Virus record (IMG/VR): IMGVR_UViG_3300027788_000004
Coordinates: 68,787-132,786 of that record
Length of the DNA: 64,000 nucleotides
Reading direction: 5' to 3' (one strand)
Origin: a virus
This document shows, piece after piece, positions 5,479 to 60,158 of this stretch (position 1 is its first letter; each line of letters begins with the position of its first letter). The notes beneath the pieces were generated by a model that was not told the DNA's origin, ran no database searches, and saw only the letters and a program-made list of their open reading frames with translations. The translations under genes were made by a program, and so were the position numbers.

Positions 5479-7215
5479 ATGGCTAAAATTAAAAGCTTTG
5501 ATGAGTTTGTAAACGAGAACTTGGTACTCCAAGGTAATTATAGATATTTCGGACCTGGTTCACTAGACCCGATAATTCAACAATTACTAGGTGAAGGTAA
5601 AAATGTATCAATTATACGTTCATATTTAACATCAATAGGTGTTGATGCTCAGCGAATAAATAAAGCAATGGCAAAATTCGAAATGGAATTAGCTATCGGC
5701 GAAAAGAAAGTAAATGAAAAATCAGTTAATGAAGGTCCTGATTATGATGAAGCAAAATATCAAATGGATAAAATCTTCGGAGATGATCAAGAATCTATTG
5801 AGAAGTTTCAAGATATCGAAGATAACGGAAACGTTAAAGATATGATCGAGTATATAAATGGATATGGAGATGAGGATAGATTAGCTGACTATGGCATAAA
5901 AACTAATGCTCATGTTAAAGGTTTTGCTAAACGTATAATGGAAAGCAAACCAGTTACTGAAGGTAAGGTTTGGACATTAGTATCTAGCGGAAATGGTTTC
6001 TATGGAGGAAGTGGAACGAGTAGAACTGAAACTACACATGACTTAAAACTTGCTATGAAATTTAAGAACATAAAACAAGCTACAAAGGTTTCTAAAGAAC
6101 TTGCTAAGGAAGGTTTTCCTAATATGGTTCATGTAATGAATGAATCAGAAGTAAATGAAGGAATTGTTAAAAAAGACAAAGATAAAGAATCTGCGGCTAA
6201 AGGCGGTGCCGATGTTTATGTTGATGGAAACGATGTTGATTTTGTAGAAGCATTCCAATATAAAGAATGGAATAAAAAAGAAAAGGATTTAGATCCTACA
6301 AATGCTAATAAATATAAAGCTGGTTCAAACGACATAGTTTTTGCTGTAAGCAATATAGATAATGGCGATATAACTTTTTATCCTGGTAATGCACTAGAAG
6401 TTGTAGAATCTAAAAAAGTAAAATCTACTTTTGAAGAAAATGCTACTAAACTTCTAAAGGATATAAACGAAGAAGAAGAGCCTAAAAAAGCTGCATTTGA
6501 AGAAGTTGCTGATAAATTCTTAAAAACTCTTAATGAAGATGATGATGAAAAGGTTGAAGAGAAATTAAATAAAAAAACTCTTCAAGTTGAAGCTGACGGA
6601 GAAGATATCGATGATATGATCGACGATTTAGTTGATGGCGATGAAGATGAAACTCAAGGACCTGACGATGATGCACCTGATGATTCTCCAGAAGAAAAAA
6701 TTAAAGATGGTGAATCTCCAGCTGATGCAGTTGAAGGTGACGAAGATGATAATGCATCACCAAGCGATAAACTTCAAAATGCTGCTAAGGAATTAGCTAA
6801 AGATTCTAAAAAATTAGAGAAGATTAAAAAACTTTTAGGAGAGGCTAACGAACTTATTGAAGCAGATACTATAGAATTGGATGACGACGGAGAAGAGGTT
6901 GAAGATGCTGAAAATATGGAAGTTGCTGATAACGGTGATGAGGTTGAGGTGATGAAGATGAAAAAAGGACCTAAACTAACTAAAGAATCTGATGAATGGA
7001 GCGACGATGTAAAAACTAAATGGACTCCACCTGCAGGATTATTTACAGAACCAGCTACTAAGATCGCAACCGTTTTAGCTGATGCAAGTAAAGATTTAGA
7101 CCAAGCAATGTCGAGAATAGATTTCTATATAAACAGAGCTGGTAAATTACTTAAACCTAAGGATAAACAAAACTTAGAAGCAGTTAAACCTTTATTGAGA
7201 AAAAAGTTCGCTTAA
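5479..7215 (+). CDS. putative internal head protein or polyprotein with capsid-targeting N-terminus
   Basis: Starts MAKIKSFDEFVNE; recurrent internal VNE/VTE/INE/LNE motifs; acidic low-complexity region; late promoter at 5449. Confidence 0.6.
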   Translation: MAKIKSFDEFVNENLVLQGNYRYFGPGSLDPIIQQLLGEGKNVSIIRSYLTSIGVDAQRINKAMAKFEMELAIGEKKVNEKSVNEGPDYDEAKYQMDKIFGDDQESIEKFQDIEDNGNVKDMIEYINGYGDEDRLADYGIKTNAHVKGFAKRIMESKPVTEGKVWTLVSSGNGFYGGSGTSRTETTHDLKLAMKFKNIKQATKVSKELAKEGFPNMVHVMNESEVNEGIVKKDKDKESAAKGGADVYVDGNDVDFVEAFQYKEWNKKEKDLDPTNANKYKAGSNDIVFAVSNIDNGDITFYPGNALEVVESKKVKSTFEENATKLLKDINEEEEPKKAAFEEVADKFLKTLNEDDDEKVEEKLNKKTLQVEADGEDIDDMIDDLVDGDEDETQGPDDDAPDDSPEEKIKDGESPADAVEGDEDDNASPSDKLQNAAKELAKDSKKLEKIKKLLGEANELIEADTIELDDDGEEVEDAENMEVADNGDEVEVMKMKKGPKLTKESDEWSDDVKTKWTPPAGLFTEPATKIATVLADASKDLDQAMSRIDFYINRAGKLLKPKDKQNLEAVKPLLRKKFA

Positions 7216-12089: not shown

Positions 12090-13847
12090 ATGAATGAAGC
12101 AAATTTATTAGTACTGGAAAGATCTACCTGTGTACTAGAAGCAAACGGAACTGGTGACGACAAGTACGTTTTAGAAGGAACTTTTTCAGAGATCGGAAAG
12201 AAGAATAAGAATAATCGTATTTACGATGAGAAAGAACTTATTCCTCATATCGACGAGTTACAGGAAAAAATCAAAAGCGGAAAGCTATTAGGGGAATTAG
12301 ATCACCCGAAACAATTTGACATATCGTTAAAGAACGTATCCCATGTTATAGAAGAAATCAAATACGATAAAGCTAATAAAAAAGTTACTGGAAAGATTCG
12401 ATTATTAGATACTGATGCTGGAAAGCAAGCTAAGGCTTTAGTTGATGGAGGTATCCCTATTCACATATCTAGCAGAGCTGCTGGTGTTGTAGAAAGCAAC
12501 GGTCATGTAAAAATTAAGAAACTATTTACTTATGATTTAGTTGCAGATCCTGGTTTTGAGAATGCAGAACTAAAACGTGTTAACGAATCATTTGGTTTTG
12601 ATAATCACGGTGATATACAGATATATGAGTTGAATGGATATATAGAACAGAATAACAAAGAAATTCAAAAAGAATTAACTACCATGGAAAAAAACGATAC
12701 ATCTATAAATGAATCAACTGGCAATTATGTTACAGTAGATGATTTTAACGAATACTCAAAAATTATTAAAGAAGAAATCGAAAAGGCTAAAGGCGAATTA
12801 ATTGACTTATCCGAATCTTCTAAAAATGATGATCTTGTAAAATACTCAGAGCAAATCGCGTCGAGAGTAAATAAAATATCTGAATATGTTGAAGGTGTTG
12901 CTGAAAACGTAGATAATCTTATTTCACATAACGATTATATTATAGAGAACCTTTCTAAAGTTAAAGATTACGCAGAATATGTGGGATTAAAAACAGATCA
13001 AAATATAGAATACTCTAAACATATTGCTGAGAACGTTAATACAAGAACATCTTATCAAGATTATGTTAATGAACATGTTGATAAAGTAATAGATTACCAA
13101 AACTATATAGTTGAAGGTCTTGATGCTACAACAAATTATGCAGAATATCTAAAAGAAAATTTAGAAAAACTTGGTAATTATACAGATTATGTAGTTTCTT
13201 CATTAAACGAAACGAAAGTTGAAGATAATAAAGAAGAAACTAAAGAAACAATAAATGAATCAGAAACAGTTGAATCAACTAACGTTGAAGAACTAGTTAC
13301 TGAAAACGAAACATTCAAATCAGAATTAAACGAAAAAATTACAGCGTTGGTCGAATCAGCTAAGAAGCAAAAAGTTGAAGAAACATCTGTAAATACACAT
13401 TTCTTACATTTCTTGAATGAAGATCGCAGATCTAACTATAAGGATTTAGACGATGAGGCTAAGGCGAAAGTCATTAGAGCTTATGAATCTACCGATTGGT
13501 TTGGATCTAACGATGCTTCAGGAATATGGGAAAGTGTATTCGCCGAACCTATAAAAAAAATCGATTGGTTAGAAAGTAGACCTGAGAAATTCGATAGTCT
13601 TTGGGAGTCCTTAAATGAGGATTCTAAAAATTCTATCAAAGCTCAAGCAACTATGAGAGATCTTGATACACAGTACAAGATCGATCACTTCTGGGCAACA
13701 CGAGATTTAAGAGGTTCAAACCCATCTGAACAAATTGATGAATCTAAGAAAATGGTTAACGAAAGTGAATCATCTACTTATGAAACACAAGGTGTTTACA
13801 TGGACTCTGTTACAGAGGGGCTTAAAAAACGCTTTAACAGAAGTTAA
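12090..13847 (+). CDS. gp21: prohead protease (gp21-like) fused to scaffold/core protein (gp22-like)
   Basis: N-terminal NKNNRIY, LLGELDHP, ISSRAAG, YDLVADPGF protease motifs; long acidic helical C-terminal part with many x-x-E sites. Confidence 0.85.
   Translation: MNEANLLVLERSTCVLEANGTGDDKYVLEGTFSEIGKKNKNNRIYDEKELIPHIDELQEKIKSGKLLGELDHPKQFDISLKNVSHVIEEIKYDKANKKVTGKIRLLDTDAGKQAKALVDGGIPIHISSRAAGVVESNGHVKIKKLFTYDLVADPGFENAELKRVNESFGFDNHGDIQIYELNGYIEQNNKEIQKELTTMEKNDTSINESTGNYVTVDDFNEYSKIIKEEIEKAKGELIDLSESSKNDDLVKYSEQIASRVNKISEYVEGVAENVDNLISHNDYIIENLSKVKDYAEYVGLKTDQNIEYSKHIAENVNTRTSYQDYVNEHVDKVIDYQNYIVEGLDATTNYAEYLKENLEKLGNYTDYVVSSLNETKVEDNKEETKETINESETVESTNVEELVTENETFKSELNEKITALVESAKKQKVEETSVNTHFLHFLNEDRRSNYKDLDDEAKAKVIRAYESTDWFGSNDASGIWESVFAEPIKKIDWLESRPEKFDSLWESLNEDSKNSIKAQATMRDLDTQYKIDHFWATRDLRGSNPSEQIDESKKMVNESESSTYETQGVYMDSVTEGLKKRFNRS
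12637..12645 (+). promoter_or_regulatory. candidate internal late promoter for a nested scaffold transcript
   Basis: GATATATAG followed by an A-rich leader and in-frame ATG at 12684 (Met199), just after the protease domain. Confidence 0.5.
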
Positions 13848-13890: not shown

Positions 13891-15615
13891 ATGAATTTAA
13901 TTAATGAATCTGAAATTTTTTCTAAGTGGACTCCGATTATCGAGAGCACTACTGGAATTGAAGACAGATCTAAACTAGAATGGATGTCTAAGTATTGTCA
14001 TAACCATGAGTTGTACGAGAATAATTCGACTGCAACTGTAGGTTCTGTTAATGGTATGGGTGCCGTACGTTTCCCAGCTCCTCCTGGAGCTCAGACTGCG
14101 TTCGCTACTCAAACTACTGGATCTGGTGATAAGCCTTACACTTTGCTTCCTCTTGCTATGCAAGTTGCTGCTCAGACTGTAGGTTTAGACCTTGTACCAG
14201 TTGTACCAATGAATGGACCAATGGGAGTGCTTACTTATTTAGACTTCGTCTACGGCGGTGGTAAAGTACCACAAACCGGACAAACTGCTGCATTTAACGC
14301 TACAACAGCTGGAGATGCACCAAACATGCCACTACTTATTAAAGTAGACTGGCCGACGGGAGCTTCTTCTTTTGGAAGTGTACCTAAAGGAACAGTTGGT
14401 GGACTTAATGCTGTAGGTAACGTTCCTGGTGGAACTGTTACTTTTGTAGGACAATCAAGAATTGACGGTTACCCAATCTTCAAAGTTGACTCTCTTACTG
14501 CAGGATTATCAATCGCTGACTTATTCGGAACTGCAACTGGTGTAACTTTCTCTGGAGGTATTGCAACTGCCGGTATCGGTAGTGTAGCAATTTCTGTAGG
14601 AAATGCAACATTAGTAAAAGCTCTTGAAGATCATGTTCAAGGATTCTCATCTAACGATTACACTGGTTCTACTGAGCCAATGTCAAGAGTACAAGGTGAG
14701 GGTACTGTAGATAACGTAATGAATTTAAGTTTATTCAACAAATCTGTTGAAGCACAAACTTTCCAAGTTGCTGCTGCAGTAACTAGAGAGCAAGTACAAG
14801 ACTTAAAACAATTCGGTATCGATGCTGTTGCTCAAGTTGAATCAGTTCTTATTAACGAATTGACTCAATCAATTAACAGAAACATCTTAGGAAGAGTAAG
14901 AAGATTAGGTTATTCTAATGCTCAAGGTATTTTTGCTTCACAAGGTGTACAATTCAACCTATGGGTTGGATCTATATTAGGTGCTACAACTTATTCGACT
15001 GTATATGGAACTTACGGTGCTAGTGCAACTGCATTAGATACTGCTCAAGGTAACGGACTACAAGCGTTTGGTATTGGTGCATCTTCTAATCCTGTTATAA
15101 ACAACTCTGAAACTAATTCTAACGCAGAGAACTTACATACTAGACAACGTAAAGTAATGTCTAAATGTTTAGCTGCTGCAAATATGATTGCGATCAGAGG
15201 TAGAAGAGGTCCTGCTACTTTCGTAGTAACTAACGGACAACTTGGTACTGCACTTCAAGATTGTGCTGGATTCGTTCCTGCACCATTGATGAATACACTA
15301 AACCAACAAACTGGCTCATTATACCCTATCGGTACTTTAGCTGGATTGGTTGTTTACGTAGATCCATTAATGTCATGGGGTGATACTCGAGTGACTGTAG
15401 GTAGAAAAGGTGACGGAAACTCTCCAGGTATTGTATTTATGCCATACTTAATGGCTGAATCAGTACAAACTATTGCTGAAGGAACAATGGCGCCGAAAAT
15501 CGCTGTGAAATCTAGATATGCATTAGTTGAGGCTGGATTCCATCCTGAAACTATGTACTTATCATTCGGTGTTGTTTATGGTGATAATATCTTAGCTGGT
15601 GGTGGTCTTGCGTAA
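13891..15615 (+). CDS. gp23: major capsid protein (T4 gp23-like)
   Basis: DLVPVVPMNGPMG, TREQVQDLK, INELTQSINR, FMPY, PKIAVKSRYAL motifs; strongly biased codon usage. Confidence 0.95.
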   Translation: MNLINESEIFSKWTPIIESTTGIEDRSKLEWMSKYCHNHELYENNSTATVGSVNGMGAVRFPAPPGAQTAFATQTTGSGDKPYTLLPLAMQVAAQTVGLDLVPVVPMNGPMGVLTYLDFVYGGGKVPQTGQTAAFNATTAGDAPNMPLLIKVDWPTGASSFGSVPKGTVGGLNAVGNVPGGTVTFVGQSRIDGYPIFKVDSLTAGLSIADLFGTATGVTFSGGIATAGIGSVAISVGNATLVKALEDHVQGFSSNDYTGSTEPMSRVQGEGTVDNVMNLSLFNKSVEAQTFQVAAAVTREQVQDLKQFGIDAVAQVESVLINELTQSINRNILGRVRRLGYSNAQGIFASQGVQFNLWVGSILGATTYSTVYGTYGASATALDTAQGNGLQAFGIGASSNPVINNSETNSNAENLHTRQRKVMSKCLAAANMIAIRGRRGPATFVVTNGQLGTALQDCAGFVPAPLMNTLNQQTGSLYPIGTLAGLVVYVDPLMSWGDTRVTVGRKGDGNSPGIVFMPYLMAESVQTIAEGTMAPKIAVKSRYALVEAGFHPETMYLSFGVVYGDNILAGGGLA

Positions 15616-15736: not shown

Positions 15737-18121
15737 ATGAAAATTATTTCTAGAAATTCATTCAATCATATAAATGAAGCGGTTTTTGGTGTACGTTTAT
15801 CAGGATATTCAAAAGAAGATTTTGAAAGACTTAATCATACCGAACTATCAGATGCACTTAAACAGATATTATTACTATCAGGCGGAGGATTCACGACCGA
15901 ATCCATTTCATGTCTAAAACAATCTTTACTAAAACATAATTTATTAGAAGAATCAAGATTTGATAAAGTTATTTTTGATAAATCAGTCAATGAAGAAAAC
16001 CTTAATGAGGATGACCATTTAGCAATGATTGATGATCTTATTAAAGGTACTGCAGCAATTGGACTAGCTGGTGCTGTTGGTATGGGAGCATACATAAACT
16101 TTTTAGGTAAAAAGAAAAAGATCAAAAAGGCTTGGACTAATGTATATAAAGCAAAGGGAGATGAATCTGATATTGATTTAGAAACGTGGCAAGAGAAACA
16201 AGCGTTAAAAGCTGAATTAACTAAAGATGAAGTTACTGATAAGACAGGACAAGTTGAAACAACTATAACTAATAAGAAAGAAGAATTAACGAACGTTGAT
16301 AAAACATGGGATGAAGATAAAAAGGAAGCTAAGCAAAAACTTGATGATACTAAGAAGTTATTATATGAATTAGATCCTAAAACATATAACGACCCAGAAG
16401 CAAAATCTTCAGTAAAACCAGCAAAGGAAAGTTTGAAAGAAGAAGAAACCGAAAAGGAAGATAAAAAGGATGATGGACCTGAAGGAGATTTACAAAAAGC
16501 ACAAAACGCAGTTAAAGATGCAAGACCTGATGAAAAGGAAATAGAAAAGGAATTAATACCAATTGATAAACAAATTCAAGGAGGTATTGATAAAATGGCA
16601 GATTTCAAAGGAGATAAGAAAGAAAAGGCTGCGGCTGGTAAAAAATGGGCAAAAGAAAAATCTAAATTACAAGATAATAAAGAAAAGATTAAAGATGGAT
16701 CTTCTAATAAAAAATTACAAGCTGCTAAAAAGGAGTTAGAAGGAATAAAAAAACAACTCGAATCTGAACAAAAGAGATTAGAAAAAAGAAAGGCAGATTA
16801 CGCAGAATACGCTGATGGATCTACTAAAGAAACGAAATCAAAATTAAAGGACGAGATAGATGATCTTCGAGGAGAAATTGATAAGATAAAGGAAAGAGGC
16901 CAACCAAAGGGAGATGCTAGTGATGTTCAAAAAATAGATGATATCGGTAAGCAAAAGAAAGAGAACGTTAAGCAAGAAATTCAAGCTTTAGCAGATGAGG
17001 CTGATCGAGTAAGTGGAACTAAAGATGGAGGTAAGGAGGCTGCTGGTTTAGCTGGTAAAGCTCTTGGTATGAAATCAGGATTTACTAAAAAGGTAAAAGG
17101 TGAATTAGAAAAGGATCTAATAAAACAGAAAAAGTCTAACATTGAAAAAATGGGAGATGATAAACGAGCAGAATCATTAGATATATTAGCTAAAGAAGCC
17201 GATAAAAAAGCTGCAGAAGGAGATAAAAAATTCCAAGACGAAAAGAAAAAGGTTGATGCATCTGATAAAGAAAAGCAAGAAGCTGAGGATAAGGTGGCTG
17301 CAAAATTAGCTAAAGATGCTGAGGATAAAAAAGCAAAGAATACGGAAAAGACCGCTGAGTTAAATAAAGAAATCGCTAATTTACAATCAGGCGATTCAAA
17401 GGGTAAGGAAGAACAAATTGCTAATCTACAAACTCAGATTAATAAATTACAAACAGAACACCGTTCGGTTACAACAAAATTCAAAATTGCAATTTTAGAA
17501 GCTGAGCTTAGGAAAATAACGGAAGAAGATAAAGATGCAAAAAGTAGTAATGATAATACATTATTAAACAAAACGGTTATACTGAGTGATCTCTCAGGAA
17601 CCGATATGAGTCATCTAGATGGAGCTGAGGGAGTTGTTACTAAGTCTTTCAAAGAAGGCGAACGAGAACCTGAAGGAGATATGCCAAGAAGATCAGGAGA
17701 TCCTGAATTATTCAAAATAGAATTAAAGGATCCTCAAGATCCTATGTATCCAGATGTTAACTTACCAGCAAAAAACATAAAAATTCTTGATAAAAAGGCT
17801 GATGATAGTGAAGAAGAAGAAACAAAAACCGAAGAAAGTTTTAGATCTAAATTTAATTCGGCAATGAACGAAGAGAATAATAAGATGAATCATCAAGCTG
17901 AACTCGAACAAAGTGCAGATAATAATAAAGAATTAGCAGAACTTAAAAAGTATAAGCAAAGATTATATGATTCTGGAGAATCTGCAGCGGTTAGTACTTG
18001 GGAATCGTTTGAAAAACGAGTTATAGGTAAAGATGGCACATGGGAGCTTGCACCTACACAATCATATGCAAAAGCTATAACACAACTAAAAGATCTTATA
18101 GGTAAATATAGTATAAAATGA
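15737..18121 (+). CDS. large Lys/Glu-rich coiled-coil protein, putative internal head protein
   Basis: N-terminus MKIISRNSFNHINE; late motif at 15703; one hydrophobic segment then a long K/E/D-rich helix. Confidence 0.55.
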   Translation: MKIISRNSFNHINEAVFGVRLSGYSKEDFERLNHTELSDALKQILLLSGGGFTTESISCLKQSLLKHNLLEESRFDKVIFDKSVNEENLNEDDHLAMIDDLIKGTAAIGLAGAVGMGAYINFLGKKKKIKKAWTNVYKAKGDESDIDLETWQEKQALKAELTKDEVTDKTGQVETTITNKKEELTNVDKTWDEDKKEAKQKLDDTKKLLYELDPKTYNDPEAKSSVKPAKESLKEEETEKEDKKDDGPEGDLQKAQNAVKDARPDEKEIEKELIPIDKQIQGGIDKMADFKGDKKEKAAAGKKWAKEKSKLQDNKEKIKDGSSNKKLQAAKKELEGIKKQLESEQKRLEKRKADYAEYADGSTKETKSKLKDEIDDLRGEIDKIKERGQPKGDASDVQKIDDIGKQKKENVKQEIQALADEADRVSGTKDGGKEAAGLAGKALGMKSGFTKKVKGELEKDLIKQKKSNIEKMGDDKRAESLDILAKEADKKAAEGDKKFQDEKKKVDASDKEKQEAEDKVAAKLAKDAEDKKAKNTEKTAELNKEIANLQSGDSKGKEEQIANLQTQINKLQTEHRSVTTKFKIAILEAELRKITEEDKDAKSSNDNTLLNKTVILSDLSGTDMSHLDGAEGVVTKSFKEGEREPEGDMPRRSGDPELFKIELKDPQDPMYPDVNLPAKNIKILDKKADDSEEEETKTEESFRSKFNSAMNEENNKMNHQAELEQSADNNKELAELKKYKQRLYDSGESAAVSTWESFEKRVIGKDGTWELAPTQSYAKAITQLKDLIGKYSIK

Positions 18122-49147: not shown

Positions 49148-49882
49148 ATGGATATTATACCTTCATTCACAGCATTCTTAAACGAAGCTGACGGATCGTA
49201 CAAACCAGGAAATATATCAGTTCCTGATGCATATAACATTAAATGGACTATTACCGACTTAGACTTAGGTAAAGGAATTTTTGCTAAGAAATACGATTTC
49301 GAATTCAAATTAGTTATTGAAGGATCTTCTATTGCAGGAGAAACAATTAAACAATCTGCTATTATGTCTATATCAAATGATTCTACTGGAGTTTTTGCTT
49401 TAGGTGATGATGTTGCAAAGTTTTCAGGACTAACTCTTAAGGATGCCAAGGCATATAAAGAAACTCCTGATGATGCATATATTTATGGATTAGTTAATAT
49501 CATGAATGGAGGTAAGGATATGTACTTCTGGACAAACGGTAAACGATTAAGTGGAGCTGCAAAAGCAGTAAGTTCTATGTCTGCAGTGATTGAACAACTT
49601 GCACATGAAGTAGGAGTTCATTTTACAAGACAACTTTTAGTTAAAATGGTTGCACAAAAACTCGACGTTGATATCACAAACGAAGATTGGATCACATATG
49701 ATTATGGGTCTGGTGAATATATGTGGCCAGCGGTTGGTGATCCTGATGATGATAAAAATCCTATGGTCATGATCGACGAAGAAACATTTGCTACGGCTGG
49801 ATCAGCTATGATATCTATGCTTACCGATGGGTTCTTTGAGATGGCAACTAATTACTTACCAAACTTACCTAAATTAAAATAA
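49148..49882 (+). CDS. tagged putative head-packaged protein with zincin-like motif
   Basis: N-terminus IPSFTAFLNE; LAHEVGVH plus downstream EE. Confidence 0.55.
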   Translation: MDIIPSFTAFLNEADGSYKPGNISVPDAYNIKWTITDLDLGKGIFAKKYDFEFKLVIEGSSIAGETIKQSAIMSISNDSTGVFALGDDVAKFSGLTLKDAKAYKETPDDAYIYGLVNIMNGGKDMYFWTNGKRLSGAAKAVSSMSAVIEQLAHEVGVHFTRQLLVKMVAQKLDVDITNEDWITYDYGSGEYMWPAVGDPDDDKNPMVMIDEETFATAGSAMISMLTDGFFEMATNYLPNLPKLK

Positions 49883-49890
49883 TCAGACCA

Positions 49891-50313
49891 ATGGATAATC
49901 AAAACCCTGGAAAAGAAAATAAAAACTTAGATGCTATAAGGCACTTCAAAGGTACTTGGAAAGATTTTGAAGATTTTTGGAAATCAAAAGGAGCTAGAAT
50001 GTCTCCATGGGAAGAATGGGAACAAGAGTATCCTAAGAAAAAGAAAATGGTAAGTAAGAATCCAGTCAATATGTATAAAACATTTGATGATGAATCTAAA
50101 GTAAAGGAATCTAATGATATAGATTTTTTATCATTTGCTGCATTTATAGGAGAGGATAATTTAGTTGCTTTAGGTGGTAGTTCTCAAGACAATCCACCAA
50201 TACAAAAACCATTTGTTCTAAAGACAAATAAACGTAAAGGTAGTAATGAGGATGATGACGACGATACTGAAGAAGTAGCAGATGTGAATACGGTAGGAAT
50301 CGGAACACGATAG
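49891..50313 (+). CDS. hypothetical protein
   Basis: Internal KESND..FLSFAAFIGE tag-like segment. Confidence 0.6.
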   Translation: MDNQNPGKENKNLDAIRHFKGTWKDFEDFWKSKGARMSPWEEWEQEYPKKKKMVSKNPVNMYKTFDDESKVKESNDIDFLSFAAFIGEDNLVALGGSSQDNPPIQKPFVLKTNKRKGSNEDDDDDTEEVADVNTVGIGTR

Positions 50314-50359
50314 AGATATATAATAAAATAACAAACTAAATTAAACATAATAATTAAAA

Positions 50360-51280
50360 ATGAAAAATTTTAGATCAATTAAACCTAATGTTATGGGTGG
50401 TCAAAAGGCTAATCCTACAACAAATAGTAATTCAAATTGGATCAACGAATCATTGTCTAAACCAGGTACAGTTAATCATGATAAAAGATTATTCGAAGCG
50501 AATGATTTAACTTCAGATTCTTCTATGGGAACTCAATCTGGTGGTCTTATTGGAGCAGAATGGACATCGAGTTTAACTGCAGTAACTACTACACAAACAA
50601 GAACCGGTGATGCTGATTGGAATACAGTAAGAGCTGCAGCTGCATCTACTGCACAATCAGCTACTGTTGCAAATATAGATTCAATGCATGCAAATGCTCC
50701 TCATACACTTGCAAGATTAGGACTATCTTTCGATATGTATGCTGCTGGAATAAGAGCGGATCTTCACGAAATAACTTCGGCTAAAATAATTTTCTCACCT
50801 TCTACAAGTCAAGAAGTATTTGGTTGGACTAAACAAGCAGCAGGAGCTACAGCATATGCATCTAGTGGATGTTATGTAGTTAATGGATTTGTAGATAATA
50901 CTGCAATGACTTCATCTGCTAAGTATAACGATCCTTATGCACATTCTCCATCTATGGAAGAAGCGGTATCAGGAAAAGTTATGTTACCAGGTGCAACTGC
51001 AATATCTTATTGGGGAATGAATGCTAACGATCCTGCTAATCTTACTTACGAAATGCAATTAAATACTGCAGGTCTTGCGAATTTAATATCAACTGGTTAT
51101 GATAGTTCTGGTTATACTGTTCAATTTTGGGTAGTAACTCCACAAGATAAAACAGATTCTAGACTTGATTGGGACAGACACTATTCAACATTTGGCGATG
51201 TAAGTGCAAGTGGTGGAACTGTTACTTTAGATATTTCTTATAAAGTAAAGAATTCTCCATTTGAACCATTATCTAGATAA
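50360..51280 (+). CDS. putative virion structural protein
   Basis: Late promoter at 50315; A/S/T-rich; WINE and LFE sites near the N-terminus. Confidence 0.55.
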   Translation: MKNFRSIKPNVMGGQKANPTTNSNSNWINESLSKPGTVNHDKRLFEANDLTSDSSMGTQSGGLIGAEWTSSLTAVTTTQTRTGDADWNTVRAAAASTAQSATVANIDSMHANAPHTLARLGLSFDMYAAGIRADLHEITSAKIIFSPSTSQEVFGWTKQAAGATAYASSGCYVVNGFVDNTAMTSSAKYNDPYAHSPSMEEAVSGKVMLPGATAISYWGMNANDPANLTYEMQLNTAGLANLISTGYDSSGYTVQFWVVTPQDKTDSRLDWDRHYSTFGDVSASGGTVTLDISYKVKNSPFEPLSR

Positions 51281-51301
51281 TAAAAATAAACATATAATAA
51301 A

Positions 51302-51748
51302 ATGTCGAAAGAAATTAAAAAATACAATGATTTTGTAAACGAAAATTATTACGAAACGTCACCAACCGTAGTACCTGGTGCTGGAGTTGGTGGTGGTTTA
51401 TTCCATAATGTCGGAGGAGCTAAAGTTAAACAAGATCTTTATGAAAAGGATGTTCCTCAAATAGGAGCTAACGGTATTGCTAACGATCCTGATTACGTTC
51501 CACCAGCACAAAACACACATGCTACATGGATGGGACAAATTGCTTTAGCAGATATGGTAGAAGACGTAAACCCAGAATGTAAATTCAAAGGTTCTATGGG
51601 TAAGGTAATAGGAATTCTTGGATCTGGTGATTTGGCACAAGTACAATACTTAATTGCAAACGAAGGAGATGGATGGGGAGTTGGAGAAGTTGCAAAAGTA
51701 TCTGCAACATCATTACAACTACTTAAAAAACATCAAATGAACGCATAA
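51302..51748 (+). CDS. tagged putative internal head protein
   Basis: N-terminus EIKKYNDFVNE; SH3/KOW-like C-terminal pattern. Confidence 0.6.
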   Translation: MSKEIKKYNDFVNENYYETSPTVVPGAGVGGGLFHNVGGAKVKQDLYEKDVPQIGANGIANDPDYVPPAQNTHATWMGQIALADMVEDVNPECKFKGSMGKVIGILGSGDLAQVQYLIANEGDGWGVGEVAKVSATSLQLLKKHQMNA

Positions 51749-52071
51749 TGCAATTCAAGAAATTTCAAAAATTCGTTAATGAAGATTTATCATTTCTTCC
51801 TTCTGATAGCGCTGAAAGAGTTAGAAAATTTAATAATATCCAATTAGGATATAATAAAGATGCTGTTAGTGCAGAACCTAGTGTAGGAGAAGATGGACCT
51901 ACTATGTTATCGAAGAGATTAGGTGATATTGAACCAGTTCTCGATGATAATGGAAATCCTGAAATGTTTCCTAGTTCTTTAGGACAGGTTAAACAAATAA
52001 CGCAACCAGGAACTACAATAGTTTCTCATGATAATATGAGAGGCGAACCAATGTTAACTAAAACAAACTAA
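51748..52071 (+). CDS. tagged putative internal head protein
   Basis: N-terminus MQFKKFQKFVNE. Confidence 0.6.
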   Translation: MQFKKFQKFVNEDLSFLPSDSAERVRKFNNIQLGYNKDAVSAEPSVGEDGPTMLSKRLGDIEPVLDDNGNPEMFPSSLGQVKQITQPGTTIVSHDNMRGEPMLTKTN

Positions 52072-52073
52072 TT

Positions 52074-52280
52074 ATGTCACAATCAAAAGGCCTTGGAGAT
52101 AGTATAGATAAGTTTACTACAGCAACTGGTATTAAGAAAGTTGTAGAAGCTGTATCAGGTGGAGGTTGTGGATGTAATAAAAGAAAGGAAACTCTTAATA
52201 CAATGTTTCCGTATTCTCAAAATTCAACAGGTAAATCTATCCCAAAGGATCGTACAGTTGGTGGTATAACTAAAACATAA
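52074..52280 (+). CDS. small conserved phage protein (GLGD...TGIK...CGC..RK..LN type)
   Basis: SKGLGDSIDKFTTATGIKK...GCGCNKRKETLN pattern seen in many phage genomes; function unknown. Confidence 0.7.
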   Translation: MSQSKGLGDSIDKFTTATGIKKVVEAVSGGGCGCNKRKETLNTMFPYSQNSTGKSIPKDRTVGGITKT

Positions 52281-52289
52281 ATTTAAGAT

Positions 52290-52577
52290 ATGGACCATCC
52301 ATTTTTCGGCGATTGGGAAAAACGCAAAAAACCTACAATGTCTCAAGGAGCTGCAGATTTTTGTAACGGAGTATCCCTTAACTCACAAAATATATCTGAT
52401 AATGATAGTTTAATTGAAGACTTTCAAGATAAGAAAAAAGCATTAAAAGAAATGGAAAGATCATTATCTCCAGAAGATCTTAAGATAATGGCACAATCTA
52501 TGGGAATGGGTGGAACCGATCCTCAAAATTCTGTTTCATCAAGATTTAGACAAGCCTTAAATAATAAACAACAATAA
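52290..52577 (+). CDS. hypothetical protein
   Basis: 95-aa ORF in a tight operon. Confidence 0.6.
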   Translation: MDHPFFGDWEKRKKPTMSQGAADFCNGVSLNSQNISDNDSLIEDFQDKKKALKEMERSLSPEDLKIMAQSMGMGGTDPQNSVSSRFRQALNNKQQ

Positions 52578-53032
52578 TGAGCTTTAAGAAATTTAATACA
52601 TTTGTTAACGAAACTATTGGAACTGTTAATGCTCCAGTACATGGTGAGGCTCCTGAAGAATTTCCAGAAATTGCTCTTGAATCAGAAACTAAATATATTA
52701 AAGAAATAACGTTAATACTAAAAGAATTATATACATCGGCATTGGGTTGTGGTTGTGATGCAGTTAAATTAAAAGAAACATTATTTCCTAAATATAAAAA
52801 TACTAAGTATAAAATGAACGTTACCGAAGATGGTGATTTTCGATTAGATACTTTTGGTAAATATCCAGATGTTCACATTAACTTATCTAATATGAAAAAA
52901 GGTAATCATAATAAAGAATCCATTAAGGAAGAGATTAAAACCCAGATTAAAAAAATACAAGAGAGAATGCCAGGAATGCCATCTATATCACAAATTTCTA
53001 GTTTCTCTAGTGCACCTAATCTTCCAGGTTAA
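52577..53032 (+). CDS. tagged putative internal head protein
   Basis: N-terminus MSFKKFNTFVNE. Confidence 0.6.
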   Translation: MSFKKFNTFVNETIGTVNAPVHGEAPEEFPEIALESETKYIKEITLILKELYTSALGCGCDAVKLKETLFPKYKNTKYKMNVTEDGDFRLDTFGKYPDVHINLSNMKKGNHNKESIKEEIKTQIKKIQERMPGMPSISQISSFSSAPNLPG

Positions 53033-53065
53033 GATTAAATATATAACTAAAATACAATTCAACAG

Positions 53066-54991
53066 ATGACACTAATAAAAAAATTCGATAACTTTATTAA
53101 CGAAGCTTATAAAGGAGATCCAAAGAAATATAAACAATGGTGGGACAAAGGACCTGAAACTCAAATACGAAGAACATTTGGTAAAGAATATGAAAAGGCT
53201 ATTGATAATAGAGTTAAGTTATTATTAACGTTAGTTGATGATCCAGATAAAGCAGAAGAATATGCAGAAATGGACTTTCTTTCTTTACCTAACGGAATAT
53301 CAACTCAATTAGTAAATATGGACCCAAAGGAATTACATACTATATTAGATGAATCAGTTACTGAAGCTAAAGGTGAATCAAACGAAGAACTCATGTTTAA
53401 CTTTCTAGAAGCATTAAGAGCTTCTGGCGCAACTAATATGTTTGGTGCTGCTCCTTATTTACAAGACTCATTTGGCCTTAGTAAAAGTGAAGCTAAAAAA
53501 GTATTGATTAAATGGATGAAATCATATGAATCTGTTGCTGAAGGTCATGAATTCAAACACATTAATAAAGATGAGCATAAGATTAAACTTGCAATAAAGG
53601 ATGTTGAGAAAAAGGTTAAGTTAAAAGCTAATCGAGGCAACCCAATAGAATACGATCAACTATCTCTTAATAAAATTATGTTATCTAAAGTGCTTGGTCG
53701 AGGAAAGTTAGATAAAGAACATCAAGATGCATGGGAAAAATTAAAGAAAGAATACGATCTTAAGGAATCTATTAACGAAGCAAGGGCAAATACTGCTAAA
53801 GAGGCTTTAAGAAATGCATCTGATGCATTAACACAAACAATACCAGGTAGTAAATTAAACAAATCTTATGTTAAAGATTATCTTAAGTCTTTAGAAAGAA
53901 TGGCTAAAAAGGCTCCTCAATTATTTGTTAAACAATACGGAGACTTTACTATAAATGATTATCTCGAAGATGTTGAATATAATATGGCTAACGAATCTGT
54001 TAATGAAGCTAAAAAAGATCTAAAGATCGGAGATACTGGTGTTGACTATAACGACAATACAGTAGAGGTTATAGAAATTGGTAATTTTAACAAAGTATCA
54101 AAAAGCTTCAAAAAGCAAATGAAAGCAGATGCTGAAGATTATGGATATGAAAAATCATCAGGTGATTTCTATCTTACTAAAAACATTGAAGCAACCGAAG
54201 GTAACGTTGGTGATTTAGCAATATATCCAGTAAAATATGATATGGCTAATTATTGGGGACTTGAACCAATTAAAGAATCTCTAGTTACTGAAGCTAAAGT
54301 TACTGAAAAAACTATCGACGGTCTAACTAATAAATTAGCTAAAATAGTAAAGGAATTAAAAGAGAATTTTCTATTGTATAAAGGTGCTAAAAACGATGCA
54401 GATAAAAAGAAATGGACTAAAAGAGCAGGAGAGCTTACGAAATTGAAACAACTAGTAGATAGTGAATTAGAACAAGCTATACAATCATTTCATAAAGATA
54501 TTGAATATGATGAAGCTTATGAAACCTTTTCATACTATGAATCTCTTTTAGAAAGTACTATTGGTATAAAAACCGATGGTACTGCTTCTGTTAAAGGAAT
54601 CCAAAAACTGAGAGATGATTTAGACAAAGCAAAAATTAAACATAAGTTTAATAGATTATCAATGACTTTATCAGTAATAGATACGGATAAAAAATTCTTT
54701 GCCGATGCTAAGAAGATTGTAGATGATTCAGGTTTTGCAATTTTAATGGCTAAAGAATCTAAGGATGGTGTATATTCTTTTGATGAATTTTTAGAAGAGG
54801 GTAGCTTTTCCGATTGGGAAGTTTCGTTCAAATCAATGAATTTATCAGGCACTAAATTGAATCCTAAAAATGTATATAAAGTAAAAGCAAGAGGAACTGC
54901 CGAAGCAATTAAAAAAGCTGCTAAAGACGCTGGAGTAAAGGATGATATGTGGATTGCTACTGAAACTAATTCGATTAAGAAAATTAGTTAA
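53066..54991 (+). CDS. tagged modular putative polyprotein (about 8 modules joined by ES-[VIL]-x-E linkers)
   Basis: MTLIKKFDNFINE tag; ESVTE, ESVAE, ESINE, ESVNE, ESLVTE, ESLLE, FDEFLEE spaced 60-95 aa apart; late motif at 53038. Confidence 0.7.
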   Translation: MTLIKKFDNFINEAYKGDPKKYKQWWDKGPETQIRRTFGKEYEKAIDNRVKLLLTLVDDPDKAEEYAEMDFLSLPNGISTQLVNMDPKELHTILDESVTEAKGESNEELMFNFLEALRASGATNMFGAAPYLQDSFGLSKSEAKKVLIKWMKSYESVAEGHEFKHINKDEHKIKLAIKDVEKKVKLKANRGNPIEYDQLSLNKIMLSKVLGRGKLDKEHQDAWEKLKKEYDLKESINEARANTAKEALRNASDALTQTIPGSKLNKSYVKDYLKSLERMAKKAPQLFVKQYGDFTINDYLEDVEYNMANESVNEAKKDLKIGDTGVDYNDNTVEVIEIGNFNKVSKSFKKQMKADAEDYGYEKSSGDFYLTKNIEATEGNVGDLAIYPVKYDMANYWGLEPIKESLVTEAKVTEKTIDGLTNKLAKIVKELKENFLLYKGAKNDADKKKWTKRAGELTKLKQLVDSELEQAIQSFHKDIEYDEAYETFSYYESLLESTIGIKTDGTASVKGIQKLRDDLDKAKIKHKFNRLSMTLSVIDTDKKFFADAKKIVDDSGFAILMAKESKDGVYSFDEFLEEGSFSDWEVSFKSMNLSGTKLNPKNVYKVKARGTAEAIKKAAKDAGVKDDMWIATETNSIKKIS

Positions 54992-54995
54992 AAAG

Positions 54996-55023
54996 GAAAC
55001 ATTTTTGAATCGTATACATATAA
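54996..55023 (+). promoter_or_regulatory. putative middle promoter GAAAC-N16-CATATAA
   Basis: Exact motif upstream of the GT2-TPR gene. Confidence 0.8.
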
Positions 55024-55051
55024 TAATTACTAACACTTTAACACATATTAA

Positions 55052-56272
55052 ATGAAGGAAAATGAATTACCATTTTTAGGGTTAAACATAATCGTTAAAA
55101 ATGAAGAAAAGGTAATCGCAAGAATGCTGGAAACAGTAGCGCCTTTAATCGATTGGTACACTATCGTTGATACCGGTTCCACAGATCGTACAAAAGAAAT
55201 CTGCAAGGAAGTTATGGATAAACATGGCATTCCTGGTGAGATTATCGATCATAAATGGGAGAACTTTTGTGCTGCTAGAAACGCTGCATTACAAGCGGCT
55301 AAAGGTAAATGCGAATTTGCATTTTGGATAGACGCTGATGAACAACTAATATGGCCAGATAAATTCTCTAAAGATAAACTTATTACTGGACTTAAGAATT
55401 TTGATGCAGGTGCAATAACTGTAAATTACGGAAGTCAAACTTATTTTAGAACTCAATTTATGAGAGTATCTTGTCCATGGGAATGGAGAGGTGCTGTTCA
55501 CGAAATACAATTACCTAAGGAAGGATCTGACTTTAATCCTAGAGGAACACAAGTTGGAGGTCTTAGTGTATTAGTAACTCCAGATGGTGCTTCGTGGGGA
55601 GATGGATCAGATCCAAAGGCTGCTCAAGAAGCGAAGTATAGAGAACATGCAGAAATGTTACATGAGTATATTAAAACAGATAGTGATATTAGATGGATAT
55701 TCTATTTAGCTCAATCTTATAGAGATTCGTTTCAATGGGAATTAGCTGAAAAATACTATCAACAAAGAACCGATAGTGAAGAAGGTTATTGGGAAGAACG
55801 TTATTTTTCTGCGTTAATGGTTGCTTCTATGAGATCTAATCAAGGTAAACCAGTAAATGAAATAATGGAAGCTTACGCATATTGTTCTAGATTTGACTAT
55901 CGTAGAGCTGAGCATTTTATTCCTATCATAAGATATTATCAAGGATTGCAAAACTGGCCAATGGCTTACTCGTTATCTAAATATGTTATTGATAATTGCT
56001 CTAAAAATCCTTTCCCAACATCATCACTATTTATAGATAAAGCAACATATGATTGGCAATGTTTAGATCTACATTGTATATCAGCATTTTATATGGGTAA
56101 ATTACCTGAAGCAAAAAAGATCTATAATAAATTAAGAAAGGCAATTAACGCAGGATTAGTACCAGAATCAGAACATAAGAGAATTATAGATAATGATAAG
56201 TGGTATAAGCAAGCAGCTAAGGATAAATCATCGGCACCGAGTCCTAATGTTATTCCTATTCTTAAAAAATAA
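55052..56272 (+). CDS. glycosyltransferase family 2 with C-terminal TPR repeats
   Basis: IVKNEE, VDTGSTD, NF..ARN, WIDADE, W.G.VHE; FYLAQSYRD TPR-like helices. Confidence 0.88.
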   Translation: MKENELPFLGLNIIVKNEEKVIARMLETVAPLIDWYTIVDTGSTDRTKEICKEVMDKHGIPGEIIDHKWENFCAARNAALQAAKGKCEFAFWIDADEQLIWPDKFSKDKLITGLKNFDAGAITVNYGSQTYFRTQFMRVSCPWEWRGAVHEIQLPKEGSDFNPRGTQVGGLSVLVTPDGASWGDGSDPKAAQEAKYREHAEMLHEYIKTDSDIRWIFYLAQSYRDSFQWELAEKYYQQRTDSEEGYWEERYFSALMVASMRSNQGKPVNEIMEAYAYCSRFDYRRAEHFIPIIRYYQGLQNWPMAYSLSKYVIDNCSKNPFPTSSLFIDKATYDWQCLDLHCISAFYMGKLPEAKKIYNKLRKAINAGLVPESEHKRIIDNDKWYKQAAKDKSSAPSPNVIPILKK

Positions 56273-56514
56273 TGGAACTATCCGTTAAAAAAAATATCAG
56301 AGCTTCGGTATACGTTAACAATCAACGTTTAATAGATTTAGAAAATTCATCGGTTTATTCCAAGGTTGAGAACGACGAAATCTTTATTTTTATTAAACAT
56401 GCTAAAACTGGACAATCTGTTAAATTAGTTATCCAACAATGTGCAGAAGAGTTAGATAATGGATCTACTGGTTCTACTGGAGTTGCTGGATCTACTGGTT
56501 CTACAGGAATGTAA
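56272..56514 (+). CDS. small protein with (GST)n tail
   Basis: C-terminal GSTGSTGVAGSTGSTG; start overlaps the GT2-TPR stop. Confidence 0.6.
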   Translation: MELSVKKNIRASVYVNNQRLIDLENSSVYSKVENDEIFIFIKHAKTGQSVKLVIQQCAEELDNGSTGSTGVAGSTGSTGM

Positions 56515-58319: not shown

Positions 58320-59042
58320 ATGAAAAGAATTACAGATTGGCATAAACTTTTTATCGGTAGATGGCAAAACATATTAAGAATTGATAACTATCAAACATTA
58401 TGGGTTAGTTTTGTTAAAGGCCTTTTACTAGGTTATATCATTTGTTCTCTTGTTAGTTGTACTGTAACTTATGAATATGCAAATACTCCGATATATGAAG
58501 ATAGGGAACATTCTACTGAATTATATTTTTGGACAGATAATGAATTAGGCGGATCTCCATATTGGGGATATTATACAGGATTCTATTATTATTATGGAAC
58601 TCCTCACTACTATCCTTGGTGGTATTACTATCAAGCGATTCCTCCGCATCATCACCATACTCATACTCATGTATATGTTAATTGTGATAATGGATATTAT
58701 GTTTATGGACATCGTGGAAATATGTTTAACAATACGAATGGAGGTAATTATATTGCAACCACTAAGCCAAGAACTAATAGAACAAAAACTAACGTATTTC
58801 CATATACTTGGAAGTCTAGTAATTCTTCTATAAACGTTAAACAAAATGATAATAGGATATATGTAAAACCTAATACACAGCATAACACGACACCAGTCAT
58901 CATCAAGAATAACAATACGAACACAAATAGATCCAACGTTAATACTAATCGATCTAACACAAAACCAAATAAAAACCAAAACAATACTAGGATAAATAAT
59001 AAAGTAACAAAGACTAATAAAATAAATAAAAAACCACGATGA
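58320..59042 (+). CDS. putative lipoprotein, Tyr/Trp-rich with Asn/Thr/Lys-rich tail
   Basis: Hydrophobic stretch ending LVSC (lipobox-like). Confidence 0.5.
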   Translation: MKRITDWHKLFIGRWQNILRIDNYQTLWVSFVKGLLLGYIICSLVSCTVTYEYANTPIYEDREHSTELYFWTDNELGGSPYWGYYTGFYYYYGTPHYYPWWYYYQAIPPHHHHTHTHVYVNCDNGYYVYGHRGNMFNNTNGGNYIATTKPRTNRTKTNVFPYTWKSSNSSINVKQNDNRIYVKPNTQHNTTPVIIKNNNTNTNRSNVNTNRSNTKPNKNQNNTRINNKVTKTNKINKKPR

Positions 59043-59377
59043 AAACATTCAAAAACTTTAGAGAATCTCTTCTACCAGTTAACGAAGCTAAGTATAAAGG
59101 AAAGGACATTCTTCCTAATTGGTTAACAAAGGATGATTTTGGATCTCTAGTAAAGAACATACGAGATCTTAAAGAAGGAGAAAAATATATCATTTGGGAA
59201 GGTGGAATGGATACCTGGAATGGTGAATATGAATACTCATTTGATAAAATTGCAAAAGAATACTTATTTGATGATGTTTCTACTCCAGGAGCTGCAGACC
59301 CTTACTCTCAAATGACTTTTACAAAAGACGAAATGGAAGATTATATCAAGAATAAGCTAATTCTAAAACAAAATTAA
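59039..59377 (+). CDS. tagged putative internal head protein
   Basis: N-terminus MKTFKNFRESLLPVNE. Confidence 0.6.
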   Translation: MKTFKNFRESLLPVNEAKYKGKDILPNWLTKDDFGSLVKNIRDLKEGEKYIIWEGGMDTWNGEYEYSFDKIAKEYLFDDVSTPGAADPYSQMTFTKDEMEDYIKNKLILKQN

Positions 59378-59385
59378 ATAACCAA

Positions 59386-59739
59386 ATGAAAAATGTAAAA
59401 GATTTTACAGAATTCTTAAATGAATCAAACGAACTTAATGAAAATCAAGGTCGTAAAGAATACAAAAAGCTAAGAAAAAATCCACCGGAATTAAAAGTAG
59501 AAAAAAATCCTAAGGAAGTAATAGTGAATACCGTAGATAGAGATGGTAATAAATTCAGGCTTCTGTTTAACAAGAAGGGTGGTGGTTTTGGATTCTCTGC
59601 AGATGGTTGGAGTATAAAGAATTGGGACTTTGGTTACAAAGCTAAAGATATAGAATGGAAAGCCGATGAAGGTGATTGGGATTCTGTATTTGATATGATA
59701 CTAAAAGACCTTGCAATCGAAGATGTTTCGAGTAGATAA
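59386..59739 (+). CDS. tagged putative internal head protein
   Basis: N-terminus MKNVKDFTEFLNESNELNE. Confidence 0.62.
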   Translation: MKNVKDFTEFLNESNELNENQGRKEYKKLRKNPPELKVEKNPKEVIVNTVDRDGNKFRLLFNKKGGGFGFSADGWSIKNWDFGYKAKDIEWKADEGDWDSVFDMILKDLAIEDVSSR

Positions 59740-59753
59740 AATAAAAATAACAA

Positions 59754-60158
59754 ATGAAAAATATAAAAGATTTTGATGCTTTCTTAAATGAAACTGTTAT
59801 AAGAATACCAGTTGGTAAAGATAGAGATAATAACATACGAGTTAATGGTATAGGTAACAAAATATATTTAGAAAATTTTGAAACCAATATGGAACCAGCT
59901 GAAACTAAAAAGTTCTTATCATTTATAAAGGAAAAGTACGCACATTTAATAACAAATATAACACATCATTTAGGAGATCTAGTAATAACTTATTCTTTGT
60001 ATATCAATAAAGAAATAGCAGATACGCTATCAAGTATACTTAACGATATTTTTACAGCACGAGCTGAGAATAATATGGAAACATCAGAACCTGATAAAAT
60101 GAAAGAACCTAAAGGTGTTTTAGATGGTGAAACAGCAAACAAAAACAAGAAGGAATAA
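59754..60158 (+). CDS. tagged putative internal head protein
   Basis: N-terminus MKNIKDFDAFLNE. Confidence 0.62.
   Translation: MKNIKDFDAFLNETVIRIPVGKDRDNNIRVNGIGNKIYLENFETNMEPAETKKFLSFIKEKYAHLITNITHHLGDLVITYSLYINKEIADTLSSILNDIFTARAENNMETSEPDKMKEPKGVLDGETANKNKKE

Follow-up and report, generated by a model that had tools for sequence, protein, structure and literature searches.

The internal proteins (Ips) of bacteriophage T4, Ip1 (IpI), Ip2 and Ip3, and the T4 protein Alt begin with a leader of roughly 10 (about 10-19) residues that follows the pattern aromatic-x-x-F-I-x-E and ends at a Glu cleavage site (PMC9026906, PMC8442874, PMC12373910). This capsid targeting sequence (CTS) ends in Y-Q-E-F-I-A-E (PMC8442874); its residues 4 and 7 serve targeting and its residues 8 and 10 (hydrophobic-x-Glu) serve processing (PMC9026906). 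The T4 protease gp21 cleaves after L/I-x-E, as first observed at a Glu-Ala bond (PMC9026906). The Ips are described as basic, and Ip1 is small enough to traverse the portal of about 30 Å still folded (PMC9026906). All three Ips inhibit GmrSD-type restriction enzymes (PMC12373910). Each Ip is a single module that is cut once, next to the CTS. An open reading frame (ORF) in the IMG/VR virus record IMGVR_UViG_3300027788_000004 departs from this plan, in that its 641-aa product has eight unrelated modules and seven further sites behind one leader. The ORF lies at 53066..54991 (+) of the window, the last 64 kb (64,000 nucleotides) of the 132,786-base record, and coordinates below are window positions. 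The reading favoured here, and considered fairly probable, is that the protein is a late, capsid-targeted cargo polyprotein of a jumbo phage with a T4-type head, a variant on the T4 internal-protein system.

Polyvalent proteins of phages and conjugative elements contain 2-15 unrelated domains in combinatorial arrangements; it is predicted that they are packaged and travel to the recipient cell together with the DNA, and processing has been proposed for them (Iyer et al. 2017, PMC5512222). In the jumbo phages SPN3US, phiKZ and 201phi2-1, a gp21-related protease cuts many head proteins after Glu, some of them repeatedly (PMC10052503, PMC5694885). The cleavages identified in phages of the SPN3US/phiKZ type, bar self-cleavage of the protease, yield N-terminal propeptides; long propeptides are cut at multiple positions and largely cleared, and one mature product is left (PMC10052503, PMC5694885).

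The ORF runs through 1926 nt with no stop or frameshift. A sequence-only reading of the same DNA had described it as small modules separated by prohead-protease sites, and this layout is confirmed. The in-frame sites ESVTE (53351), ESVAE (53528), ESINE (53765), ESVNE (53993), ESLVTE (54275), ESLLE (54539) and SFDEFLEE (54776-54799) are all present, and each is followed by a small residue as claimed (A, G, A, A, A, S and G, in order). The modules measure 87, 59, 79, 76, 95, 87, 82 and 63 aa, also as claimed, with masses of 6.5-10.7 kDa and isoelectric points (pI) of 4.6-9.7. They are mutually dissimilar, since the eight modules fall into eight different piece families; internal tandem repeats were rejected as an account of the ORF for the same reason.

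All of these elements are on the plus strand. The leader, MTLIKKFDNFINE (aa 1-13, 53066..53104), is T4-CTS-like and ends in I-N-E followed by A. Module A (aa 14-100, 53105..53365, 10.1 kDa) closes with the linker ESVTE before A, and is found at varying positions in 26 of 218 related proteins. Module B (aa 101-159, 53366..53542, 6.5 kDa, linker ESVAE before G) is found in 9 of these proteins, module C (aa 160-238, 53543..53779, 9.3 kDa, pI 9.3, linker ESINE before A) in 39, and module D (aa 239-314, 53780..54007, 8.6 kDa, linker ESVNE before A) in 30. Module E (aa 315-409, 54008..54292, 10.7 kDa), modelled as a small alpha/beta domain, has the linker ESLVTE before A and occurs in 97 of the 218, and module F (aa 410-496, 54293..54553, 10.1 kDa), predicted to be helical, has ESLLE before S and occurs in 7. 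Module G (aa 497-578, 54554..54799, 9.2 kDa; 22 of 218) ends with the leader-like SFDEFLEE before G. Module H (aa 579-641 plus the stop codon, 54800..54991, 6.9 kDa, pI 9.7; 28 of 218) is predicted to form beta strands and a helix.

Five copies of ES[ILVM]xE occur in the ORF, a number that none of 20,000 shuffles of the same protein reaches (mean 0.073, maximum 3). Seven other ORFs of the window contain one such site each (20,580 residues examined in all). The gp21-type site rule fits the sequence at the leader end and at all seven joints.

Homologs of the ORF are not collinear with it, as had been predicted. A word-indexed search found 232 relatives of 352-1122 aa; the best 120 of the 232 were listed, and the 119 non-self proteins among them were mapped onto the query. 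One of the 119 (P0002, 702 aa, 46% identity) is collinear over its full length. The other listed relatives share one to three stretches with the query at 32-89% identity, at different positions and often in a different order. The stretches span approximately residues 11-100, 101-161, 162-240, 238-318, 311-412, 409-492, 496-566 and 579-641 of the query, so that their ends fall where the joints were predicted. When 1.84 billion cluster representatives were searched exhaustively with phmmer, 1446 matched at E <= 0.001, of which 195 reached E <= 1e-10 and 41 reached E <= 1e-30; these 1446 protein clusters share at least one module with the polyprotein ORF. The 150 phmmer matches listed are 72-1404 aa long, and their best stretches end at module edges.

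One- and two-module forms, which had also been anticipated, were found by a search among shorter proteins (98 matches). The leader is followed by A and H in P0122 (on 7 contigs) and by H in P0183 (9 contigs, the longest of 17 kb), and G is joined to H in P0126 (on 7 contigs). Module H stands alone in P0191, a protein marked complete by its source, D in P0213, on a 21.8-kb contig, and C in P0166. The leader precedes C in P0192, whose short contig possibly cuts the protein. Module B, which the sequence-only reading had likened to a free-standing phage protein, is fused to H in P0148 and lies directly behind a leader in P0187, with 84% identity over residues 98-154 of the query; the C-terminus of P0187 may be cut, as its contig has 951 bases.

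The shuffling of module order is evident across the family. When the 218 proteins were cut at linker-like sites and the pieces clustered, a step that presupposes the motif, 1050 pieces in 241 families and 156 distinct architectures resulted. In the syntenic relative L003, the flanking genes are 47-87% identical and the polyprotein reads A-variant-D-25-B-F-G. The neighbouring gene of L003 (9758-11044) encodes 428 aa with 8 linker-like sites and contains module C; it is a homolog of the single tagged 151-aa ORF at 52577 of the window. Modules thus move between adjacent genes.

Module boundaries coincide with the linker motif, in agreement with the earlier claim. In an all-against-all BLAST, 48% of 4157 internal alignment starts fall within -7 to +1 of [ILVM]xE, compared with 15% of random positions, and 47% of 3943 internal ends fall within -1 to +5, compared with 13%; the proteins are redundant, so these percentages are trends and not independent counts. 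A logo of 875 distinct boundary contexts reads E-S-[V 0.43, L 0.32, I 0.19]-[N 0.32, T 0.17]-E, followed by S (0.31), A (0.30) or G (0.12). Because the logo and the piece clustering both use the motif, a motif-independent test was added, in which module cores without their six N-terminal and eight C-terminal residues were searched and the matches extrapolated to the module start. In this core-only test, [ILVMF]xE was found shortly before the module start in 195 of 199 distinct internal contexts (A 16/16, B 13/13, C 35/36, D 27/27, E 47/47, F 13/13, G 10/13, H 34/34) and in 45 of 51 N-terminal contexts. The control, random 14-residue windows of the same proteins, contains it in 5818 of 20,000 cases (29%).

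The register of the junction is sharpest for module C: of its 48 contexts, 43 have E in the P1 column and none has D. V, I or L stands at P3 in 42 of these contexts, N at P2 in 35 and A at P1' in 42. The exclusion of Asp would not be expected of a plain flexible spacer. At module G, the motif follows in only 6 of 31 internal contexts, so its downstream boundary is uncertain, and relatives align to G only up to about aa 566. Module H is C-terminal in 20 of 23 contexts. Leader ends and linkers behave alike: in the core-only listings, the same module starts at the same distance behind the end of a leader or an internal linker (P0187, P0192, P0122, P0126), with its onset one or two residues past the same tripeptide. 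This shared tripeptide, the strongest argument that the sequences offer, suggests that the leader end and the linker are both processing sites.

Swaps at the linkers, another expectation of the sequence-only reading, are seen in natural populations. A contig of run X6 joins 53533, inside linker B/C, to 54284, inside linker E/F; 750 nt are thereby skipped in frame and an intact linker is regenerated. This joint has 27 letters on its shorter side (the caution line is 30) and is counted only because protein P0121 shows the same joined form. The first 161 residues of P0121 (modules A-B) are 98% identical to the query, and at ESVTEA the protein continues with F-G at 71% identity; P0121 is a mosaic with its breakpoint at the linker. 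Of 12 loose ends shown, four lie in linker codons or at most 7 nt from them (53357, 53549, 53769, 54002). Uncovered stretches in runs X4, X5 and X6 carry no weight.

These breakpoints also speak for a different account, namely that a packaged or late multidomain protein stays uncut between its modules, with the linker acting as a recombination joint (in-frame microhomology) and flexible hinge and with at most the leader removed. The strain breakpoints fall inside linker codons (the X6 joint and the four loose ends), the identity of P0121 to the query drops at the linker, and the linker is conserved as DNA as well within the ORF (GAA TCW GTT AMT GAA GCT). Large unprocessed polyvalent phage proteins exist, and the N4 virion RNA polymerase is packaged unprocessed (PMC5512222). 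However, identical codons are expected for identical residues in an AT-rich genome, so linker DNA conservation does not discriminate between the readings. A hinge or microhomology also leaves unexplained the strict P1 Glu, the V, I or L at P3, the small P1' residue, and the N-terminal leaders that end in the same tripeptide. An uncut protein is considered unlikely.

The likeness of the leader to a packaging tag, as first proposed, extends to its last seven residues: F-D-N-F-I-N-E matches the T4 CTS end Y-Q-E-F-I-A-E in the pattern aromatic-x-x-F-I-x-E. A gp21-family protease, whose presence in the phage had likewise been claimed, is encoded at 12090..13847 (+). This ORF of 585 aa matches PF03420 (Peptidase_S77) with 42.6 bits (cut-off 27; E 6.2e-11) and PHROG 207, head maturation protease, with E 4.2e-41, and is presumed to encode the processing enzyme of the polyprotein. 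Its prohead protease is fused to a long scaffold-like region, and the whole ORF holds 15 [ILVMF]xE[AGS] sites at roughly regular spacing (VAE/N, IIE/N, IAE/N, IVE/G, LKE/N and others; the slash follows the Glu). The scaffold-like region resembles the T4 core proteins, which are multiply cut. Among five related phage records with multi-module proteins, two contain a homolog of the protease-scaffold protein (49-53% identity) together with a capsid homolog, and the remaining three are fragments only 13-15% complete.

The site density of the protease-scaffold ORF could suggest that the 641-aa protein is itself a core, scaffold or inner-body component, loaded and cut at its linkers like T4 gp22, gp67 and gp68, with its pieces mostly expelled or structural in the head. 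T4 core proteins are substrates cut to multiple fragments (PMC9026906), and large internal protein masses are present in jumbo phages (PMC5694885, PMC10052503). However, the modules are folded, conserved at 60-98% across lineages, mutually unrelated and freely exchanged, which is unexpected for a size-determining scaffold, and architectures differ among syntenic relatives. A scaffolding role is rated improbable.

The strict leader form [FYW]xx[FYW][ILVM]xE occurs in the first 22 residues of 11 of the 132 ORFs of the record, compared with 2 in a control stretch. Nine of the 11 leaders end in [VIL]-N-E, which is also the commonest form of the last three linker residues in the logo. A second shared element lies upstream of the genes. 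In the 132.8-kb record, 24 ORFs are preceded by the motif RATATATAA at a distance of at most 60 nt, among them those of the portal and the protease-scaffold protein, the 1191-aa ORF at 29798 and the polyprotein ORF; at the last, AATATATAA occupies 53038..53046 (+), 28 nt 5' of the start codon. RATATATAA may be a promoter, of late-promoter-like type. These features bear on the view that the polyprotein is a late protein of the cytoplasm and not of the virion, and that its N-terminal motif and linkers have a different role, such as cleavage by a different protease or no processing. The neighbouring gene for a glycosyltransferase would suit such a protein, as would the scarcity of the strict leader among relatives that is given below. 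This view is yet more improbable than a scaffolding role, as the leader matches the T4 CTS position for position and recurs in the record well above the control, the record also encodes a gp21-family protease with a fitting site rule, and structural genes have the same upstream motif.

An artefact, either a chimeric metagenome assembly or several small genes read through, would be a very remote explanation. Modules that recur in many co-occurring phages can mislead assemblers, and run X6 has alternative joints. However, all seven joints are bridged in run X5, which comes from a different study and whose contigs cover 53192-53611, 53619-54070 and 54250-55049 without a mismatch; this rejects a chimera and makes the A-to-H order real. 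The exact 641-aa protein is present on 7 contigs, 11 runs contain at least half of the sampled words, and the 1926 nt are free of stops and frameshifts.

Family searches with the polyprotein gave little. Pfam returned nothing above the cut-off (only DUF2026, 16.5 bits against a cut-off of 25) and no match to the PF12699 paralog family, PHROGs and NCBIfam were without match, and so was tblastn against 50,697 phage records. Homology of the modules to the T4 Ips was likewise not found by Pfam, PHROGs or that tblastn search. Among ten relatives scanned with Pfam, three carry one domain each (DUF7249, UPF0227 and a cytidylyltransferase-like domain), and no peptidase domain was found in the ten.

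Structure prediction is consistent with separate domains. The full-length AlphaFold2 model, built on a 20-row alignment (A2), has a mean predicted local distance difference test (pLDDT) of 57.9 and a predicted template modelling (pTM) score of 0.26; the ESM Atlas model of the same protein has a pTM of 0.23. An earlier alignment of 42 rows (A1) was discarded, as rows with a single module C were misplaced at 16-24% identity. Confident islands in the full-length model lie in A, B, D, F and H (pLDDT about 70-84 in D, 65-90 at residues ~411-470 of F, and 76-85 in H), with dips at 97-105, at 155-170 and from 313. Folded alone with 27 aligned rows, module E reaches pLDDT 80.8 and pTM 0.73; in the six C-terminal residues that make up the linker, pLDDT drops to less than 50. 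The models suggest beads on a string. The claim that the protein has no integrated fold thus stands as far as the low full-length pTM and the independent folding of module E carry it; its further part, that modules do not contact each other, exceeds what so weak a model can exclude. Foldseek with the module E model gave no match at E <= 0.001 in PDB or BFVD. ESM Atlas gave module E feature scores of at most 0.78 and a TM of ~0.5 to the small beta-barrel families DUF1653, DUF2158 and YccV-like, which serve as leads only.

Each expectation of the sequence-only reading that was open to computation was borne out, namely non-collinear homologs, short forms, shuffling, the boundary motif and swaps at linkers. 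In the favoured reading of a capsid-targeted cargo polyprotein, the 13-residue leader would bind the scaffolding core like the T4 CTS, and the whole chain would enter the prohead. The gp21-family protease would then cut after Glu at FINE/A and at the seven linkers, with the consensus E-S-[VIL]-[NT]-E/[AGS], and would free equal amounts of some eight proteins, unrelated to each other and 6.5-10.7 kDa in mass. By analogy with T4 Ip1-3, the freed proteins would stay in the head and probably be ejected with the DNA; the size of the modules would fit a passage through the portal like that of T4 Ip1. The modules may have a counter-defence role, again as in the T4 Ips. With the same short linker at the end of each module, gains, losses and exchanges of modules would take place in frame at the linkers and give rise to a large combinatorial family. 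A bolder proposal, offered tentatively, is that the six-residue linker has a dual purpose, as a prohead-protease site in the protein and as short in-frame recombination homology in the DNA, where modules would be inserted, deleted or traded from gene to gene and from phage to phage. Leader and linker together would then form a system of in-frame cassettes through which the virion delivers small proteins, most plausibly for counter-defence, across uncultured marine jumbo T4-like phages.

Several points weigh against the cargo polyprotein. Tag packaging, cleavage by the prohead protease, release and retention in the head, ejection, and an effector or anti-defence role of the modules are all drawn by analogy with T4. 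T4 Ips are cut once, so several mature products from multiple internal cuts would have no known experimental precedent. The modules are not uniformly basic, unlike the T4 Ips. [ILVMF]xE is short and occurs 18 times in the ORF; as 10 of these sites coincide with neither the leader end nor one of the seven joints, the motif is not enough to define cleavage. The conservation of the linker as DNA could partly reflect recombination instead of proteolysis. The strict leader is found in the first 22 residues of only 22 of 303 relatives that start with M, and a loose form in 70 of 303 compared with 33 of 301 in the control stretch; many relatives would thus use another leader or none, or are fragments. 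The gene lies ~37 kb away from the head-gene cluster, and the low confidence of the full-length model leaves the lack of inter-module contacts undemonstrated.

The polyprotein shares with the T4 system a leader with the targeting and processing positions of the CTS and a gp21-family (Peptidase S77) protease in the same phage. Its products, predicted at ~7-11 kDa, are small like the Ips, and as for the Ips the leader is common to many unrelated proteins and the products are hypervariable between related phages. Unlike the Ips, the modules recombine at the sites, and the chain would leave several mature products in place of one. With eight modules in one polypeptide, the protein falls within the domain range of polyvalent proteins. 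Polyvalent proteins have recognisable enzymatic or conflict domains, whereas the modules here, of 59-95 aa, are without a Pfam, PHROG or NCBIfam match. The former are proposed to be autoproteolysed by their own Zincin-like metallopeptidase (MPTase), whereas a separate prohead protease is presumed here to act at a uniform linker.

The phage shares with SPN3US, phiKZ and 201phi2-1 a jumbo type and a gp21-related protease. The sites reported for phages of the SPN3US/phiKZ type have a small P3 residue (AQE, ATE, ARE, SQE; PMC10052503, PMC5694885), whereas P3 in the polyprotein is V, I or L. Unlike the substrates in those phages, every segment of the polyprotein is a conserved autonomous module, and the protein lacks the Pfam match to PF12699 noted above. 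Thomas et al. are said to give S/A/G-x-E as the general site form in giant phages. In the polyproteins of RNA viruses and retroviruses, one ORF yields several proteins in fixed stoichiometry, freed by a viral protease at short conserved sites, and these proteins, encoded in a fixed order, make up the essential machinery of replication and structure. The polyprotein described here differs in its free order and content, in belonging to a tailed phage with double-stranded DNA, and in its apparently accessory cargo.

The phage is a marine, uncultured jumbo phage, a giant T4 relative with a T4-type head. The record is 42% complete according to CheckV, which gives a genome of roughly 300 kb. The window is AT-rich (G+C ~30%), and its plus strand carries nearly all genes. 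Pfam and PHROG profile searches identify a T4-type head module in the window, with a portal gene (PF07230, E 2.2e-70) and a Gp23-type major capsid protein (PF07068, E 8.7e-36). The nearest database relative of the capsid protein belongs to an uncultured 462-kb phage (53% identity), followed by other huge phages; identity to the Lak megaphages of Prevotella is 33-38%, and phages of Tenacibaculum, Flavobacterium, Chryseobacterium and Sphingomonas are also matched. By this comparison, Bacteroidota phages are closest to it. Two further jumbo-phage fragments, L017 and L018, encode capsid proteins, picked by BLAST, in which the N-terminus of the capsid protein (13891-15615), with KWTPIIE/S and HELYE/N, is conserved; the Glu sites PIIE/S and LYE/N are candidate maturation cuts only. 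Just 3' of the capsid gene, ORF 15737-18121 encodes 794 aa, very rich in Lys and Glu, behind a looser leader (SFNHINE/A). No family match to it was found in Pfam or PHROGs, and it may be a core or internal head protein.

The region around the polyprotein ORF is held by metagenome runs from marine or seawater samples (20 rows from 14 studies), and at least half of its sampled words are held by the 11 runs mentioned above. Five rows from RNA runs hold small shares of the sampled words (0.07-0.22). In run X16, three contigs are identical to 52800-52959, 53154-53427 and 54206-54418; RNA libraries may contain DNA, so these contigs are no proof of transcription.

Other ORFs of the record have related designs. 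Small ORFs of one module each, which are the polyprotein's stand-alone counterpart, lie clustered at 49148-52577 and 59039-60158. Small ORFs with the same leader start at 49148, 51302, 51748, 52577, 59386 and 59754, and one with a looser leader starts at 59039. ORF 5479-7215 (578 aa) has the leader MAKIKSFDEFVNE followed by N and contains 10 [ILVMF]xE[AGS] sites; its middle part is acidic and of low complexity, its C-terminal part matches DUF3175 (E 3.4e-07), and it probably encodes a second cargo polyprotein of like kind. A 376-aa ORF ~16.9 kb before the window (G000:C1:51914-53044) has RATATATAA upstream and 4 strict E-S-type linkers, and is a candidate for another multi-module protein. On the 3' side of the polyprotein, the gene at 55052-56514 encodes a family-2 glycosyltransferase (PF00535, E 6.6e-14), and it is followed by an 80-aa ORF with terminal GSTGSTGVAGSTGSTG repeats.

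Polyprotein processing is a hallmark of RNA viruses and retroviruses. A tailed-phage cargo polyprotein cut by the prohead protease was not found in the main texts of the open-access PMC and bioRxiv literature, nor was polyprotein processing found described there for cargo loading in tailed phages. If the favoured reading of a packaged and cleaved cargo polyprotein is true, metagenomes could be screened for such proteins with the rule E-S-[VIL]-[NT]-E plus A, G or S, which would also predict their mature ends, and the leader-plus-linker design would suit multi-cargo packaging in the engineering of T4-type phages. The module pool, with at least 241 piece families among the 218 relatives, would offer an extensive and so far unused collection of candidates for injected proteins that act in host takeover or anti-defence. 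A single leader and a single protease would then deliver freely reshuffled small proteins in fixed stoichiometry, which would allow giant phages to vary their injected arsenal quickly.

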